Shown here: piece by piece, positions 26,646 to 36,578 of the stretch
Layout: every line of letters begins with the position of its first letter
How positions within the stretch are numbered: position 1 is the stretch's first letter
Virus record (IMG/VR): IMGVR_UViG_3300037502_002518
Location: 69,712 to 116,838 of that record
Length of the DNA stretch: 47,127 nucleotides
Strand: one strand, 5' to 3'
From: a virus
Taxonomy: Duplodnaviria > Heunggongvirae > Uroviricota > Caudoviricetes
The notes under the pieces: generated by a model
Databases searched by the model: none
What the model saw: only the letters and a program-made list of their open reading frames with translations
Told to the model about the DNA's origin: nothing
Program-made: the position numbers and the translations under genes

Positions 26646-27623
26646 CTATGCGATTTTGTAGATACCATATTTAGATGAAGCTAATACAGCCACACCAGCT
26701 TTTTTGATGAACTTGTAATCACGTTGTAAGTCATTACGTTCTTCACTTGTACCTTCAATAATCATTGATTCGCCTTCAAGAACTAATTTAACAAACTTGT
26801 CTGGATTCTTTGGAACAACAAGCAAGAAGTTAGGGTCAATAGCAAATTCATCTGTACCTGCTTTATGAGCTTGGCGCACTTCCATCATGTCAGTACCTTG
26901 GAAGTTACCATAGTAACCGAATTGGTTCTTAGCATCTAAGCTGTTGTTAGATTCTGAATCATAAGTGATTTTACCAAGTGCCTGCTTAGTACCGATAATC
27001 ATTGCTTCCATGCCAGTACCAGCTTCTACGTGAGCAACTAAGTCTGCAAGAGCTGACTCTGTAAATGTACCAGATACAGCATAAGTTTGATTTAATGCAT
27101 TGTAAGAAGCGTAAACAGCTTGATAAATTTCATTTTTAATCTTAGCTTCGTAAGATTTAGATACGTTTTGAACTAGGTCGATAAAGTCTACACGACCTGC
27201 AAGTAAACGAGCAAGCTCTTCATAAACACCAACAGAGTAAATCTTAGTCTTAACAGTTAATTCACCACTGTCTAGACGGTCTCTACGAATATCTTGATTA
27301 CCATCAGAGATGACTGCAACGTCAAACAGTCTGTTTTCACGAACTGTAAACACTTGTGTGTCACCGTGGTCTAACACTACTGTATCTACTAACATATCAA
27401 ATTGGTCTTTAAGACCTTCTTCTACTAAAACATCTAATGCTTCCTCTAAGATAGCAAAGATTTGTGGGTTATCACGTAAAGACTTTGGAGATAACTTTGT
27501 ATTACCACCATTCGCCTCGATTAATTCTTTTCTTAATACTTCCATGCTGTCTGAACGAGAATAATTCGTTACTGAGCCTTGTTGTTTGTAAGCATCAATT
27601 GCTAATTTTGCAATTTCATTCAT
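26646..27623 (-). CDS. Major capsid protein
   Basis: 325 aa, strong highly-expressed codon bias, canonical position after decoration and protease genes. Confidence 0.9.
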   Translation of the reverse strand: MNEIAKLAIDAYKQQGSVTNYSRSDSMEVLRKELIEANGGNTKLSPKSLRDNPQIFAILEEALDVLVEEGLKDQFDMLVDTVVLDHGDTQVFTVRENRLFDVAVISDGNQDIRRDRLDSGELTVKTKIYSVGVYEELARLLAGRVDFIDLVQNVSKSYEAKIKNEIYQAVYASYNALNQTYAVSGTFTESALADLVAHVEAGTGMEAMIIGTKQALGKITYDSESNNSLDAKNQFGYYGNFQGTDMMEVRQAHKAGTDEFAIDPNFLLVVPKNPDKFVKLVLEGESMIIEGTSEERNDLQRDYKFIKKAGVAVLASSKYGIYKIA

Positions 27624-29774: not shown

Positions 29775-31256
29775 CTATTGCCTACTATCATTGTCTGCTC
29801 TGTCTCTTTGTAACTCTCCACCTTCTGTTAGTTCATCATCCTCAACTTCTGGTCTCCCTGCTTCAGAAGAAGCCGATTCAGTTTGAGTGTGAGAACTTTT
29901 TAAAGGTTTAAATTTATCTGTAATTCCCAATATGTCTTCTTCTAGGAAGTTCATAGAAACTCCAGCACTAGGAGACAGACCATAAGAAGCAAGCAATCTA
30001 AGTTTTACAGGAAGCCCATACTGAGCGCCTTTTAACAACATCTCTGTCTTTTCTTTTGAATTAAATACAGTAGTGTCTAAAATGACAGCCCTAAATACAT
30101 TTGTTCCCTTGATTGAATTTTTAATCTTAGAGTTGATAACCCTCTCTACTTGTCTCAGTAAGGCAAATACTTCAGCCTCATCAATTTTTATTGACTTTTC
30201 AAGAATACCATTTGTTGGTTTATCAATATTGAATAGGGCTTGGTTTGAACCCCCTGCGGAGTAAAAGCTTCTCTCTGCTTCCCTTACACCATCTTTATTT
30301 GAGTTGTCTTTTGAAAATTCAACTGTATCAATCTCAAATGGTGATGCAATAAGACCAATCTCTTCTGGAACAACATTTGCTGTTTTTCCATGGAAGGCAT
30401 TAACTGTTTTTAAATCAATTAAGAAGTCATTATTTTTATCTGACTCTTTTCTCATTGGAATTTTTTGAATTAAAAATTTATAGTTTTCAATGATTGAATT
30501 TACTTTCCCCAATGCTTTATATTCTTCAATGTCAAAAATATCTGCAAACAATCCAGCGAAAGGAGGTATATCATAATACAACTCTTCATCTATCTTTAAA
30601 CAAATAGACTTTTCTGGTTCAACTTCTTGAAAAGCATTCCCTGTTGTGTTATACTCTCTATACATAGACTGAAAAATCTCTGGGTATCTTTCTAAATCTT
30701 CTGGGGTACTATCAAAGTAACTCATGTCAAAACTAAAGGTAAAAACACCATCAGATATACCACTTATTTGACAATATTGAAATGGCAACTCAAATATAAA
30801 ATAGCTATTGTCTATTTCCATTTCATATCCGTAAAATGTCCCAACTTTCCAAGCTTGCTTTAGAACTTTTTGAAATTCATGCTTTATGTTCATGTTTTCA
30901 ACTTTTTTAATAGCCTTAATATAATTATTTCTTAATGTTTTCTCATTAATATTTTTTGAAGTATCAAGCTCTTTTAGTTCTACATAATGGTCTAATGTTG
31001 GCATTTTTGCTAAGAAATTTATAAATCTTCTGTAGTGGGTGCTATTGTTATAAATAAATGAGCTTAAGCTTTGAAGCTCCTTTGAATATCTGATAGGATT
31101 ATTAAGATATGTTTGAACGTTATCTCTATTGTAAGTTGAATACCTTGCTCTTGTTTGTGAATTCAAATCCTTTATGATAAAATCTGAAAGCTGAGCAAAA
31201 TTCCATTTTACCATATCCCTTTTAAAATCCTCTTCTTTTTTTAATGCTTTACTCAA
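29775..31256 (-). CDS. Portal protein (YonE-like)
   Basis: 493 aa, downstream of terminase. YC.ISG..DG.F.FSFDMSYF and LKGAQYGLP motifs. Confidence 0.85.
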   Translation of the reverse strand: MSKALKKEEDFKRDMVKWNFAQLSDFIIKDLNSQTRARYSTYNRDNVQTYLNNPIRYSKELQSLSSFIYNNSTHYRRFINFLAKMPTLDHYVELKELDTSKNINEKTLRNNYIKAIKKVENMNIKHEFQKVLKQAWKVGTFYGYEMEIDNSYFIFELPFQYCQISGISDGVFTFSFDMSYFDSTPEDLERYPEIFQSMYREYNTTGNAFQEVEPEKSICLKIDEELYYDIPPFAGLFADIFDIEEYKALGKVNSIIENYKFLIQKIPMRKESDKNNDFLIDLKTVNAFHGKTANVVPEEIGLIASPFEIDTVEFSKDNSNKDGVREAERSFYSAGGSNQALFNIDKPTNGILEKSIKIDEAEVFALLRQVERVINSKIKNSIKGTNVFRAVILDTTVFNSKEKTEMLLKGAQYGLPVKLRLLASYGLSPSAGVSMNFLEEDILGITDKFKPLKSSHTQTESASSEAGRPEVEDDELTEGGELQRDRADNDSRQ

Positions 31257-31270
31257 TAAAACTCACCTCC

Positions 31271-32953
31271 CTACCATTTTTTCTTTCTCTTATTGAAGTT
31301 TACACTCCTACCAACAAAATACTTTGATGGGTCTCCCATATCTTCATCTTTGATTAGTTTGTTTTTCTTTTCTTCAAGATAAATCCAAAATAAACCATAT
31401 TCTAAAGCTGAGAACCTATCTTTTTGTATTCCATTTGATATTCTTTTTACATCCGTATTTATACCAGACTGCTTATATTCAAGGTTCATGACCTCTTCTT
31501 GTAAGAAGTCTGTCATTGTAAATGGTCTTAAATGTTCAGCTATGTTTTCATCTTTTCCTTTGTAATTCATTTTTGCATTTGATTCTGATTCTAAAAACTT
31601 AACTTGGTTGTTACCAACCCATCTAATAAATAAGTTGTGAATGTCTGAAGCCTTTTGCTCTTTTGTTTGAGACTTAACAGCATAAATCATAGGTACACTT
31701 TCTGATGTTTTATATCTTTTGTACCTGTCGTCATTTATAACTTCATATGGTGGATTTGTATCCAAGTCTGGAGCAACTAGATAATCAACTAAACCTTGCC
31801 CTAAACCATTAGCATCCAAAACTAAAACTCTTGCTCTAAAGTCATTTACTTTTTCTTTTAGAAACATCGCCTGTTCTCTGAAGTGAGTACCTTCAAAAGT
31901 GTATATATTGACAACATGCTTGGAGAATGTTCCATCTCCTCTTTTTCTTATCTTTATAACCACTAAAGCACTTTGAGCGTTTGCACTGCCCTCAGACCTT
32001 GCAACGTCATAACTTAAAATGTACTCGAAATCCTTATCCTTAACTGCCTTGGTTTCTGCTGTTTTTAAAATTCTAGATTTTCTAAAAGATTCTAAATCAA
32101 CTAAAGAGCTTTCACTAGAACCCGACCAAACACTTCCGTACTCTCTTAAGAAAGAAACTGGATTAAAGTTTGGGGAGTCTTTTAGTTCGTTAATGTAAGA
32201 TATATCTAATAAGTCTACTGATGTAGGAAGTTCATATGATGAACCCAAAACAAAAGCTGACTTTCCTTCTACCATATCTTGAAAATATTCTTGTAAAAGG
32301 TTGTAAGCAAAAGACTGCTTCGTACCGGCTGTTGTGACTATAGTCACCTTTTTCGATAATTCATATGGGTCTTGACCCCCACAACTTGCCATTCTATTAT
32401 TCGCCATAATAGGTAATAATACCTTTGTATAGTTCTCTTCATCAAATCTTTCGTGAATAATCTCCTCTACTGAAAGCCCATGTCTTCTTAAACCACGAGA
32501 AGATTCTCTATTGGCTACAACATCGAGTATTGCGCCATTCCAAAAAACAAGTTTTGTATAATCTTTGTCAAATTTAAAAGACTTTACTTCATTTTTTAAC
32601 AAAGGAATAAAATCCCATATTGCTTCAATATTTTGTTGAGCAATATCACTTGCCATTTGTTTTTGTGGAGCTGTAATCATTATCTTTATGTTTGGATATA
32701 ATATACACTCTATCATTTTTGCTAATACTTCCAAGAACGACTTAGAAGCACCACGAGTTAAGGTAAAATATGTTCTTCTGTATCTGAACATTATTCTCAA
32801 AATAATCCTCTGATAGAAGAATAACTTAAATTTTGATTTTTCTGGAAGTAAAAAGTCAACAAAAAGGTCTGGATAAGACCTAAACAGAGATAAATACTCT
32901 GTCCAATCATCCATCATGGCATCTAGCATCTTACTTCTTTTTGGCTTATTCAT
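31271..32953 (-). CDS. terL: Terminase large subunit
   Basis: Walker A-like TRGASKS, RGLRRH..VEE (Walker B), nuclease YDVAR...D.NGLG...KDRFSAL. Confidence 0.93.
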   Translation of the reverse strand: MNKPKRSKMLDAMMDDWTEYLSLFRSYPDLFVDFLLPEKSKFKLFFYQRIILRIMFRYRRTYFTLTRGASKSFLEVLAKMIECILYPNIKIMITAPQKQMASDIAQQNIEAIWDFIPLLKNEVKSFKFDKDYTKLVFWNGAILDVVANRESSRGLRRHGLSVEEIIHERFDEENYTKVLLPIMANNRMASCGGQDPYELSKKVTIVTTAGTKQSFAYNLLQEYFQDMVEGKSAFVLGSSYELPTSVDLLDISYINELKDSPNFNPVSFLREYGSVWSGSSESSLVDLESFRKSRILKTAETKAVKDKDFEYILSYDVARSEGSANAQSALVVIKIRKRGDGTFSKHVVNIYTFEGTHFREQAMFLKEKVNDFRARVLVLDANGLGQGLVDYLVAPDLDTNPPYEVINDDRYKRYKTSESVPMIYAVKSQTKEQKASDIHNLFIRWVGNNQVKFLESESNAKMNYKGKDENIAEHLRPFTMTDFLQEEVMNLEYKQSGINTDVKRISNGIQKDRFSALEYGLFWIYLEEKKNKLIKDEDMGDPSKYFVGRSVNFNKRKKKW

Positions 32954-33869
32954 CTAAATCACCATTTTTTGTCAACTTTTCTTCTCTAAGCAATTCTTCG
33001 CCATGAAGAGACTCTCTGACTTCGTTCGGCAATTTATCCATTTTCCCATGACCAACGAGTTGTCTTGTGTAGTTTAATATAGATAATATAGCAACATCTA
33101 CAATGTCCATCTTTTCTTCAACAGGTTTTGGCTCAACATAACCTCTTTTTTCAACCTCTTCAAAGATTGTACTAAAGTTACGAATACCAACTGATTCATC
33201 TGATGATTTTCTATCTTTTGGCTTAAAACCAGAAGAGTCTAAGATTTTCTCATACCTGTCATTATAATTCTTAAATGCTGTATGGTCTCCTTCTTGAAGC
33301 GCTCTATCCATCAAAATTTGGATTTGACATAGTAGCTTTAGTTGCTTTTTGAGCTGTGGAGTGTTAATATCGTGTGAAATTTCCATATCTTGATAAAACT
33401 TCTCCATCTCAAGGTACTCCCTATTGGAATATCCTGCTCCATACTTTATAATCAAATCTTTTGACATTTCTATTTTGCCATTCTCTGTCTCAAGCTCTTC
33501 CATCAATTCAACATTTATTGGATTGTCTTCGATTGACTCAACTTCTTCATCAAGAGTGACATCACTGTCCTTAAAAGTTAAACTCTTATATCTCATCAGT
33601 GACGAAATAGCCTTTAAATATTGACCAAAAGCACTTTCTTTTTCTTTAGATTTCTTCCAAACATCAATAATGAAAGGTCTGTCCAAAATCATAAGCATGT
33701 TTTTTACTGAATCTAAATCTTTTGGGTCTACACTCCAGTTAACACATGCCTTACAAAATGGAGAATATCCATCTTTATACTTGCTTGAACTAGTTGTGTA
33801 AAAATTCCTTACTGACTTTGACTTTCTACATTTTTCACATGTTTTTCTCTCTGTTTTATTATTTGACAT
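32946..33869 (-). CDS. Putative terminase small subunit (N-terminal Cys4 zinc finger; YonG-like)
   Basis: CEKC...FY...CKAC, YGAGY...EY and DIVD..I motifs. Overlaps the terL start. Confidence 0.65.
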   Translation of the reverse strand: MSNNKTERKTCEKCRKSKSVRNFYTTSSSKYKDGYSPFCKACVNWSVDPKDLDSVKNMLMILDRPFIIDVWKKSKEKESAFGQYLKAISSLMRYKSLTFKDSDVTLDEEVESIEDNPINVELMEELETENGKIEMSKDLIIKYGAGYSNREYLEMEKFYQDMEISHDINTPQLKKQLKLLCQIQILMDRALQEGDHTAFKNYNDRYEKILDSSGFKPKDRKSSDESVGIRNFSTIFEEVEKRGYVEPKPVEEKMDIVDVAILSILNYTRQLVGHGKMDKLPNEVRESLHGEELLREEKLTKNGDLDE

Positions 33870-35470: not shown

Positions 35471-35494
35471 AAAATCCTACAGGTGTAGGATTTT
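35471..35494 (-). terminator. Intrinsic terminator after the tRNA cluster
   Basis: AAAATCCTAC-aggt-GTAGGATTTT, with T-rich tail on the minus strand. Confidence 0.7.
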
Positions 35495-35526
35495 GATTAA
35501 ATATATTTATAATGTATGTTTATTAG

Positions 35527-35836
35527 CGCCCCATAGATGACTCGAACATCTGACCCACGCTTTAGCTTACCAACTACAGTTTTCACTGCCATTTTAGTGT
35601 TTGTGGTCTGGACTATAACTTCATCATTTCAGATGCGACACGTTTAGTCTCTACGGAATCTCAATCAATAGTCTTACCTGCATAAGCCATTCAAACTATC
35701 TCGTTTCCTCGGTATTTCCATCAGCATTACCTGTTAAGGTTTCACCGATACGGTGTCGTGCATTTCATAAGTTGCTTTTCCCTATGAAAGCTCCTATAAT
35801 TGAAGAGCGTTGCTCTATCCACTGAGCTAATGGGGC
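35527..35836 (-). tRNA. trnR: tRNA-Arg(UCU) interrupted by a group I intron
   Basis: Exons join to GCCCCAT TA GCTC AGTGGATA GAGC A ACGCT CT T|CT AA AGCGT GGGTC AGATG TTCGAGT CATCT ATGGGGC G, a perfect cloverleaf. CCA is not encoded. Confidence 0.92.
35566..35802 (-). ncRNA. Group I self-splicing intron (237 nt, no ORF)
   Basis: P CGTATCGGTGAAAC, Q AATACCGAGGA, R GTAGAGACTAAACG, S AAGTTATAGTCC. P3 CGACAC/GTGTCG, P7 GACTA/TAGTC, P9 GCAGT-GAAA-ACTGT. Terminal G, and U before the 5' splice site. Confidence 0.93.
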
Positions 35837-36149
35837 TTGATAAATTAATGCTATCTCGACTCGAAAAGCTACTTATGCCCCTTATCAAAGTTAAGTCAAG
35901 TATAGCCCTCTGCCTACTTAACTAGTATTTCAACAGAAGTTTTTTGTGGCATCTTATTTCAGCGACTCATCGCTTGATAAACTTGTGGTCAACAGTCTAT
36001 ATTCTTAACATAGCTATATTAGTTTGTTTAATTAAGAATAAGACCTACACAAGAGCGTGTGACCTATCTTGGTACGCTACTTATTGTAAGCGTGATAGGT
36101 ACTATTTGAGCCAGACCTCTTTTTAGTCGCATATCTGGTAGCGACAAAT

Positions 36150-36220
36150 CAAGAGCAATAGGATTTGAACCTATATGGCTGGTTTTTGAGACCAGAATCT
36201 TACCATTAGATGATGCCCTT
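36150..36220 (-). tRNA. tRNA with Trp-like body but CAA anticodon
   Basis: AAGGGCA TC ATCT AATGGTA AGAT T CTGGT CT-CAA-AA ACCAG CCAT ATAGG TTCAAAT CCTAT TGCTCTT G. Short variable loop, G73. Confidence 0.8.
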
Positions 36221-36224
36221 ATAT

Positions 36225-36295
36225 TGGACTCGGAGAATTCTGACATCTCACCTTTTCCCTTTTTGGGGACTGCTCTTCCTTTAAGCTACGAGTCC
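36225..36295 (-). tRNA. tRNA-like element/pseudo-tRNA (6-nt anticodon loop, atypical T-loop)
   Basis: Acceptor GGACTCG/CGAGTCC (7 bp), D-arm GCTT/GAGC, TCCC-CAAAAA-GGGA, T-arm GAGA-TGTCAGAAT-TCTC, A73. Confidence 0.6.
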
Positions 36296-36385
36296 AGAAT
36301 AGCCATGAGCCACATGGCTTAATCTAACCGATTAGTCGGTCGGTTTACTTATTATCCGATGAGGAATAACGCATTTTAACGACTG

Positions 36386-36470
36386 AGTGTAGTGCAATGG
36401 GTCGAACATTGCAACTCAACATCTATAGGCTAGCCATGATGTTGCGCTTTTCCAATTAAGCTAACCACAC
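36386..36470 (-). tRNA. tRNA-like element with extended anticodon arm and no canonical loop
   Basis: Acceptor GTGTGGT/ACTACAC, D-arm GCTT-AATTGGAA-AAGC, CAACATC-ATGGCTAGCCTATA-GATGTTG, T-arm GCAATG-TTCGACC-CATTGC. Confidence 0.65.
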
Positions 36471-36578
36471 ATGATATTATTAAAACCTCGCCCACTTTAA
36501 TCATATTATATGCCCTTGCAAGAGCCTTTGGAAAGTGGGGGAGGATTTTAAAATAAGTTATAAGTTAATTCATTTTTG

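Follow-up and report, generated by a model that had tools for sequence, protein, structure and literature searches.

A predicted self-splicing group I intron of the Arg.3Ug type in a phage tRNA-Arg(UCU) gene

Introduction

We wanted to find out what interrupts the anticodon loop of a tRNA-Arg(UCU) gene in a phage genome, and whether such a gene could still supply a functional tRNA. The gene lies in a stretch of 47,127 nucleotides (positions 69,712 to 116,838 of IMG/VR record IMGVR_UViG_3300037502_002518). We refer to this whole stretch as the window and number positions from its first letter. The complete record has 116,838 bp with terminal repeats and encodes terminase, portal, exonuclease, PhoH, sigma factor, RecD-like helicase and integrase; therefore it represents a phage. 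Its portal was closest to that of Brevibacillus phage Sundance (57.8% amino-acid identity), and Bacillales is the host order of the nearest cultured relative.

All phage introns known by 2014 were located in protein genes (Hausner et al. 2014, PMC3984707), and Devoto et al. 2019 (PMC6784885) state that there was no earlier report of introns in phage tRNAs. In the literature that we searched, no later description of group I introns in phage tRNA genes was found. For bacteria, the number of known tRNA intron settings has been raised from 4 to 21, and the curated seeds include the setting named Arg.3Ug (Williams 2020, bioRxiv 10.1101/2020.01.27.920355). The Arg.3Ug group I intron in a phage tRNA gene described below is a fresh copy of this known bacterial element, in a phage setting that is hardly documented.

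Structure of the split tRNA-Arg(UCU) gene

The gene occupies positions 35836-35527 of the minus strand, and a 237-nt insert separates U34 from C35. The same coordinates had been predicted from the sequence, with the strand left out, and both ARAGORN and the sequence agreed with them. When introns were allowed, ARAGORN called tRNA-Arg(tct) at 35526-35836 (-), which is 105237-105547 in genome coordinates, with a 237-nt intron from tRNA position 35. The exons of 34 and 39 nt (plus one extra base in the ARAGORN call) joined into a perfect cloverleaf with the anticodon loop CU-UCU-AA, as expected from the original prediction of an Arg(UCU) gene split after U34. The 3' exon also holds the T arm, the acceptor 3' strand and the discriminator G73, and CCA is not encoded. 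A20, C35 and U36, which we take to be the identity elements recognized by E. coli ArgRS, were all present in the joined tRNA. The size of the insert and its predicted lack of a reading frame were confirmed, as no ORF of at least 20 aa lies wholly within the 237 nt. The positions of all features are collected in Table 1.

Splice points given by ARAGORN are often off by one or more bases, and we corrected them by requiring U at position -1 and G at omega. A shift by one base to 35/36 was rejected; it would leave the product unchanged, but the intron would end in C. Joining of the exons into tRNA-Ser(GCU) was rejected as well, since the intron would end in A and the long variable arm is missing. 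The 7-nt loop, the U at -1 and the G at omega taken together leave only CUU/CUAA as the junction. The 23 nt spanning this predicted junction were identical in six uninterrupted tRNA-Arg(UCU) genes found with a 23-nt pattern on IMG/VR viral contigs. None of the six was a true intron-less allele (empty site), as all of them had other acceptor and T arms.

The codon that this tRNA would read was predicted to be heavily used in the phage. We calculated that 64% of its Arg codons, and 25 per 1000 of all codons, are AGA.

Table 1. Positions of the exons, intron elements and flanking signals of the split tRNA-Arg(UCU) gene. Helices are predicted; intron numbering runs from 1 to 237.
Feature	Window positions	Strand	Intron positions or pairs	Basis
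tRNA-Arg(UCU) 5' exon: acceptor 5' strand, D arm, anticodon stem 5' strand, C32 U33 U34	35803..35836	-		ARAGORN, cloverleaf
Group I intron, 237 nt, ORF-less, tRNA type, Arg.3Ug setting	35566..35802	-	1-237	model R1, ORF check, helix map
P1			C32-G12, U33-A11, U34.G10, C1-G9	
P10			C35-G9, U36-A8, A37-U7	
Internal guide UAGGAG	35791..35796	-		direct pairing
P2 hairpin, 9-nt loop	35763..35789	-	14-22 with 32-40	pairing
P3 5' strand	35753..35758	-	45-50	pairs with 35636-35641
P4-P5-P5a arm	35709..35748	-	55-94	pairing, family alignment
P4			55-60 with 89-94	
P5 / P5a			64-65 with 84-85; 70-72 with 79-81	
P6 (GGA/UCC) with P6a/P6b extension	35655..35708	-	95-148; P6 = 95-97 with 146-148	
P7 5' strand GAGACU, bulged A153	35646..35651	-	152-157; 152 and 154-157 with 189-193	within invariant GUAGAGACUA block
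P3 3' strand	35636..35641	-	162-167	P3/P7 pseudoknot partner with P7
P8 hairpin, 4 bp, loop UGAAAU	35622..35635	-	168-181; 168-171 with 178-181	pairing
P7 3' strand AGUCC, J8/7 AAGUUAU just before	35610..35614	-	189-193	pairing, A1
P9.0 (ACCA/UGGU) around P9 hairpin, GAAA loop, then AA and omega-G	35566..35607	-	P9.0 = 196-199 with 231-234; P9 = 214-218 with 223-227; omega-G = 237 (35566)	pairing, family
tRNA-Arg(UCU) 3' exon: C35 U36 A37 A38, anticodon stem 3' strand, variable loop	35527..35565	-		ARAGORN, cloverleaf
Terminator-like hairpin with T run, 32 nt downstream of tRNA	35471..35494	-		consensus scan
Promoter-like site upstream of tRNA cluster, weak (10/12 matches; regional count no higher than in shuffles)	36505..36534	-		

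Classification of the insert

Core motifs from the insert were scanned against IMG/VR, and most matching loci proved to be tRNA genes that ARAGORN called as split. We aligned 32 other phage tRNA introns (alignment A2), leaving out the intron studied here and its near-twin L008. RNAalifold recovered from A2 the anticodon stem together with P2, P3, P4, P5, P6, P8, P9.0 and P9, and 36 of the 47 pairs showed compensatory change. A covariance model built from A2 (R1) gave a single match in the 47-kb window, at 35558-35810 (-), over the full length of the model (143.3 bits, E = 4.8e-36); part of this score arises by construction, because a 15-mer of this same intron served to collect the training set. 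Among 102 aligned R1 matches from 100 sources, in an alignment that was itself fitted to R1, 94.1% of the cells were paired, compared with 70% in shuffled controls. Pairing fell to 46.5% or less when the partners were slid against each other, and 45 of the 47 pairs had changes on both sides. Further, the fold of the insert was more stable than that of its shuffles (z = -2.64). All 35 invariant columns of alignment A1 were present in this intron, including the GUAGAGACUA and UAUAGUCC blocks. On the basis of its sequence and of the covariance model, we classify the insert as a group I intron. The R1 match and the standard pairs found throughout uphold the original prediction of a complete group I core.

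Infernal with the Rfam group I models had been proposed as a check, and it did not detect the intron: RF00028 (Intron_gpI) gave no match to the window, either at the gathering threshold or at E up to 10. The same model passed gathering on three of the 32 members of A2 (L030, 75.6 bits; L057, 56.9 bits; L064, 53.4 bits), and it also missed L008, L106 and both introns of L026. Since Rfam matches members of A2 and the A2-built R1 matches the insert, the insert is tied to recognised group I introns. The sub-lineage of this intron is below the reach of Rfam, and the lack of a match is a limit of the model and not a sign of absence. The 12 Rfam seeds include no bacterial one, and with a model for bacteria 20% more introns were found (Williams 2020).

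Predicted anatomy of the intron

Every mapped helix of this copy, from P1 to P10, consists of standard pairs; the pairs of P1, P7 and P10 were counted by script, apart from those of the other helices. In the family, P2, P3, P4, P5, P6, P8, P9.0 and P9 were supported by covariation. Compensatory changes were observed at 10 of 10 pairs of P2 (family helix 2), at 6 of 6 pairs of P3 (family helix 3) and at 4 of 4 pairs of P8 (family helix 7). P6 also covaries, being GCC/GGU in the Leu type and GGA/UCC or GGG/CCC in the Arg/Lys sub-lineage. P7 is backed by pairing only, because it is invariant in the set. By analogy with other group I introns, G154-C192 would be the pair that binds guanosine.

The architecture appears to resemble that of subgroup IC3. 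The modelled helix map fits the IC3 periphery, with P2 present, the P5abc extension absent, a compact body and a GNRA loop on P9, and the L2-P8 loop-receptor contact that relatives have is absent. IC3 is also the subgroup under which the four classical types of tRNA intron are listed, and bacterial seeds share the P9.0/P9 architecture of the 3' end (Williams 2020).

Splice sites and the competing P1 register

P1 is short and consists of three exon pairs and one intron pair. Guide GAG pairs with C32-U33-U34 in P1, with U34.G as a wobble, and guide UAG pairs with C35-U36-A37 in P10; prior to step 1 the middle G of UAGGAG also pairs with intron C+1. We observed that guide GAG accompanies exon CUU throughout the family, and that the guide base before GAG tracks exon base 35: it is G where base 35 is C (all Arg introns) and U where it is A (Leu). 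This tracking supports P1 and P10 as they were drawn in the original prediction, that is, C+1-G, U34.G, U33-A and C32-G for P1 and CUA on UAG for P10. The register is conserved in relatives, and the curated seed Rba190.Arg.3Ug has P1 CUUC/GGAG in the same register (Williams 2020).

A competing 6-bp register, GCUCUU/AGGAGC (G29-C13 to U34-A8), had been predicted as a possible switch or source of mis-splicing. It is indeed present and near in energy (-66.3 vs -67.8 kcal/mol, a gap of 1.5). As a device it was not upheld, since the other Arg.3Ug introns that we inspected by eye, at their exons and intron ends, were without it. Among the introns so inspected, the alternative register occurs only in this lineage; it depends on the anticodon-stem sequence of this particular tRNA. 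We rejected it as a productive P1: it would place the cut after U33, give a 6-nt loop and unzip the anticodon stem, and the relatives inspected do not have it.

Relatives in other phages

The split gene was kept at 96% identity in L008, a twin phage contig from another sample. The two copies differed at 12 positions, 11 of them in the intron and one in an exon. Core helices were free of differences, and ten of the 11 in the intron were confined to loops or linkers (P of approximately 0.006, our own binomial estimate from these counts). Changes that fall almost only in loops are the pattern of selection for structure.

These data bear on the possibility that the insert is a decayed relic which no longer splices, so that the tRNA-Arg gene would be dead and the phage would rely on tRNA-Arg(UCU) of its host. 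Such a relic could go unmatched in Rfam and could have a short P1 with a nearly isoenergetic competitor. An endonuclease ORF is absent, as expected late in the life cycle of an intron. The 9-nt L2 has no GAAA loop and P8 is a bare 4-bp hairpin without a receptor-like motif, unlike in the Leu type, which could weaken folding. However, the short P8 also occurs in L106 and L026 and is therefore a lineage trait rather than decay. Moreover, the core helices are all intact, the invariant core positions are complete, R1 matched over its full length, the exons still form a flawless cloverleaf, and L008 has changed almost exclusively in loops. We consider decay unlikely.

The same comparison addresses an assembly artefact. 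The record is a metagenome assembly and could in principle hold a chimera, but an independent contig from another sample carries the same split gene. An insert removed by proteins (an endonuclease and a ligase) would fit poorly with the full group I core, the U at -1 and the G at omega, and neither a bulge-helix-bulge motif nor a tRNA-like insert was seen. We regard a chimera or removal by proteins as exceedingly improbable.

A survey of phage tRNA-Arg(UCU) introns, suggested together with the original prediction, identified introns at 34/35 in at least seven phage lineages on IMG/VR contigs (this phage with L008; L010; L021; L026; the L083 group; L106 with L206; L186 with L244). Two of these introns contain homing endonuclease genes: the L010 intron encodes a PF11645 PD-(D/E)XK endonuclease (E = 8e-37) and the L021 intron an HNH_3 protein. 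For the copy studied here we found no homing endonuclease, either in the intron or adjacent to it. An intron type at 33/34 also exists in phage contigs (the L030 group).

One 15-mer from the intron core matched at least 118 IMG/VR viral contigs (L029-L146). More than 90 split tRNA genes were recovered in this way; approximately 70 of the contigs carried tRNA-Leu(UAA) split at 34/35, and others carried Met(CAU) and further tRNAs. The labels Tyr(ata), Ser(gct) and SeC that ARAGORN often gave to these loci are wrong because its splice point was off by one or two bases. A scan with a 14-mer of the 3' junction returned mostly chance matches; 13 of 121 had the core motif, and eight of these were Arg.3Ug. 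In GenBank phages, blastn with the locus gave only short core matches (a 484-kb uncultured phage and crAss-like DnaB introns) and the split tRNA gene in none of the cultured phages, and R1 found no match in Brevibacillus phage Sundance. The 484-kb uncultured phage (L026; GenBank LR756508.1, 10718-13801) carries two adjacent split tRNA genes, Lys(UUU) with an insert of 193 nt and Arg(UCU) with one of 175 nt, and a strong HEARO RNA match (RF02033, 144 bits) lies just downstream of them.

Relatives in bacteria and origin of the intron

A single pattern scan with the signature of the sub-lineage matched at least 120 bacterial species. Among the matches listed, 81 were called as tRNA-Arg(UCU) with the arrangement CTT/...G/CTAA, and 16 more were added after correction of a one-base mis-split, giving approximately 97 of 120. 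The original prediction implied that an Arg(UCU) intron at 34/35 would be rare. It belongs instead to a described bacterial type, Arg.3Ug, present in approximately 97 of the species listed and in seven or more lineages of phages.

Apart from L008, the precursor had its closest relatives on chromosomes of cultured Bacillales: Chryseomicrobium excrementi, Halalkalibacterium ligniniphilum, Pallidibacillus pasinlerensis, Cytobacillus gottheilii, Alkalicoccobacillus gibsonii, Paenactinomyces and Salinithrix. In tRNA and insertion site (CUU/c...g/CUAA) they agree with the phage intron, and they likewise have U at -1, G at omega, P1 CUUC/GGAG, the core signature and the P9.0/P9 end. The guide UAGGAG is common to four of the seven (those of Chryseomicrobium, Pallidibacillus, Cytobacillus and Alkalicoccobacillus). 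Along the full precursor the identity was approximately 70%, and in its first 134 nt it was 83-85%. All seven copies have ordinary Bacillales tRNA-Arg exons, unlike the phage, whose tRNA-Arg differs from theirs in its acceptor and anticodon stems and in its T arm. The phage intron is also shorter (237 nt vs 275-306 nt in the Bacillales copies).

Since introns of this type encode homing endonucleases at the same site in other phages and the nearest relatives are in Bacillales, the intron most likely passed from a host of Bacillales type to the tRNA gene of the phage or the other way round.

Comparison with known introns

The best-known intron at 34/35 is that of cyanobacterial and plastid tRNA-Leu(UAA) (Leu.3Ug, as in Anabaena/Nostoc), of which there are many IMG/VR copies. 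It resembles the phage intron in position, in a P1 that pairs C32-U33-U34 with GAG, in keeping the anticodon stem, in its core and in its P9.0/P9 end with a GAAA loop. Zaug et al. reportedly found in 1993 that splicing in Anabaena requires a paired anticodon stem. The Leu type differs in its tRNA, in the P10 guide (UUU/AUU for AAA vs UAG for CUA here) and in the sequences of P6 and J3/4. Its P2 is capped by a GAAA loop and its P8 is receptor-like, two features that are missing here, and Rfam detects this type but not the intron of this phage.

The introns of Azoarcus tRNA-Ile(CAU) and alpha-proteobacterial tRNA-Arg(CCU) (Ile2.5Ug and Arg.5Ug; IC3) are likewise small and ORF-less. They too form P1 from three anticodon-loop bases and have a similar P9 end. 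They are inserted at 36/37 in proteobacterial chromosomes, whereas the phage intron is at 34/35. The original prediction placed the Ile(CAU) intron at 33/34, and this needs correction, as Ile2.5Ug is listed at 36/37 (Williams 2020).

With the introns of phage protein genes (T4 td, nrdB and nrdD, crAss-like DnaB and a reductase-like gene of this same phage) the intron has the CCGUAGAGACUAAACG and UAUAGUCC core blocks in common, and it shows local similarity to the crAss-like DnaB introns. Those introns lie in reading frames, mostly contain an endonuclease ORF and differ in their P9 end, whereas the present one interrupts a tRNA and has no ORF. The 'enigmatic' tRNA introns of Lak megaphages (Devoto et al. 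2019) are also inserts in phage tRNA genes, but they are short, some are tRNA-shaped and they have not been classed as group I; the insert studied here has a complete group I core.

Proposed splicing pathway and the question of function

We consider it highly likely that the phage tRNA-Arg(UCU) gene is split at 34/35 by a compact, ORF-less Arg.3Ug intron that splices and persists as a low-cost selfish element, one that has moved between host and phage. The cost would be low because the intron splices. By analogy with known group I introns, it very probably self-splices to give a tRNA for the main Arg codon of the phage. We infer splicing and its chemistry to proceed as follows. The tRNA cluster would be transcribed from the minus strand, and the tRNA body, the anticodon stem included, would fold. 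C32-U33-U34 would then form the short P1 on guide GAG, in which the U34.G wobble would define the 5' splice site, and a free guanosine held in P7 would attack after U34. Next, C35-U36-A37 would pair with guide UAG to form P10, omega-G would enter the G site and the exons would be joined. The product would be a normal tRNA reading AGA. An endonuclease may since have been lost from this copy, or may never have been present in it, and the intron would be a selfish element rather than a device.

Alternatively, the intron could be kept because it is useful, gating the supply of the AGA-reading tRNA by infection stage or guanosine pool, or sheltering the anticodon loop from anticodon nucleases of the host. 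AGA is the main Arg codon, an alternative register close in energy is present, and phage tRNAs have been proposed to counter tRNA-cutting defences (eLife 2023, PMC10264068). However, nothing ties the intron to timing or nuclease evasion, and the alternative register was missing from the other Arg.3Ug introns inspected by eye. The precursor cannot decode, and the spliced tRNA, with its normal loop, would be equally exposed. Many bacteria carry this type of intron in the usual tRNA-Arg genes of their chromosomes, where phage-specific roles cannot apply, and relatives with homing endonucleases point to selfish spread. A useful intron of this kind seems to us very unlikely.

We give similarly little credence to conditional splicing, whether it were set by the two competing P1 registers or by the guanosine pool. 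If it were true, the reading of AGA would be switched on at a set infection stage or host state, and a selfish intron would have become a translational timer. Blocking of an att site, which had been suggested along with timing and evasion of anticodon nucleases, has little logic for a phage-borne tRNA because integrases use tRNA genes of the host. None of these three roles found support. Nothing beyond splicing is indicated for this locus, and the element is ordinary in kind.

More than 90 split tRNA genes in IMG/VR, and nearest relatives in the likely host order, make phage tRNA genes seem a regular, unannotated home of group I introns and a possible route between hosts. Because standard tRNA finders and Rfam miss such genes, phage tRNA sets and analyses of codon supply undercount them.

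Genome setting and further tRNA-shaped loci

The tRNA-Arg gene is flanked by the terminator-like hairpin and a 64-aa gene downstream and by tRNA genes upstream. With standard settings, ARAGORN and Rfam reported only tRNA-Leu(CAA) (36149-36221) in the window. We observed two further tRNA-shaped loci on the minus strand. The gene at 36385-36470 has a 14-nt loop in its anticodon stem with a small GGCUAGCC hairpin; ARAGORN called it 'Tyr(ata)' with an 11-nt intron, and we read it as a mini-insert or else as a disabled tRNA. Between this gene and tRNA-Leu(CAA), at approximately 36230-36300, lies a tRNA-shaped sequence, called neither by ARAGORN nor by Rfam, whose loop is rich in A (CAAAAAG) and whose anticodon stem is imperfect.

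Outside the window, at approximately 29,940-31,310 (L002 1440-1560, L148), the phage has a second group I intron. It contains an ORF and splits a ribonucleotide reductase-like gene. Judging from the reading frame, the gene is probably an anaerobic-type reductase and the ORF a putative homing endonuclease. The 41 nt of the P4-P5 arm were 93% identical between this intron and the tRNA intron, and therefore exchange between introns within one genome is suggested. A third, weaker R1 match, also outside the window (26965-27202 (+), L149; 28.4 bits, E = 1e-5), may be another group I intron of this phage. Within the window, a 307-aa gene in the terminase/exonuclease interval (32946-33869 (-)) has an N-terminal match of HNH/endonuclease VII type (phrog_3314, weak HNH), and its product may be a free-standing homing-type nuclease.
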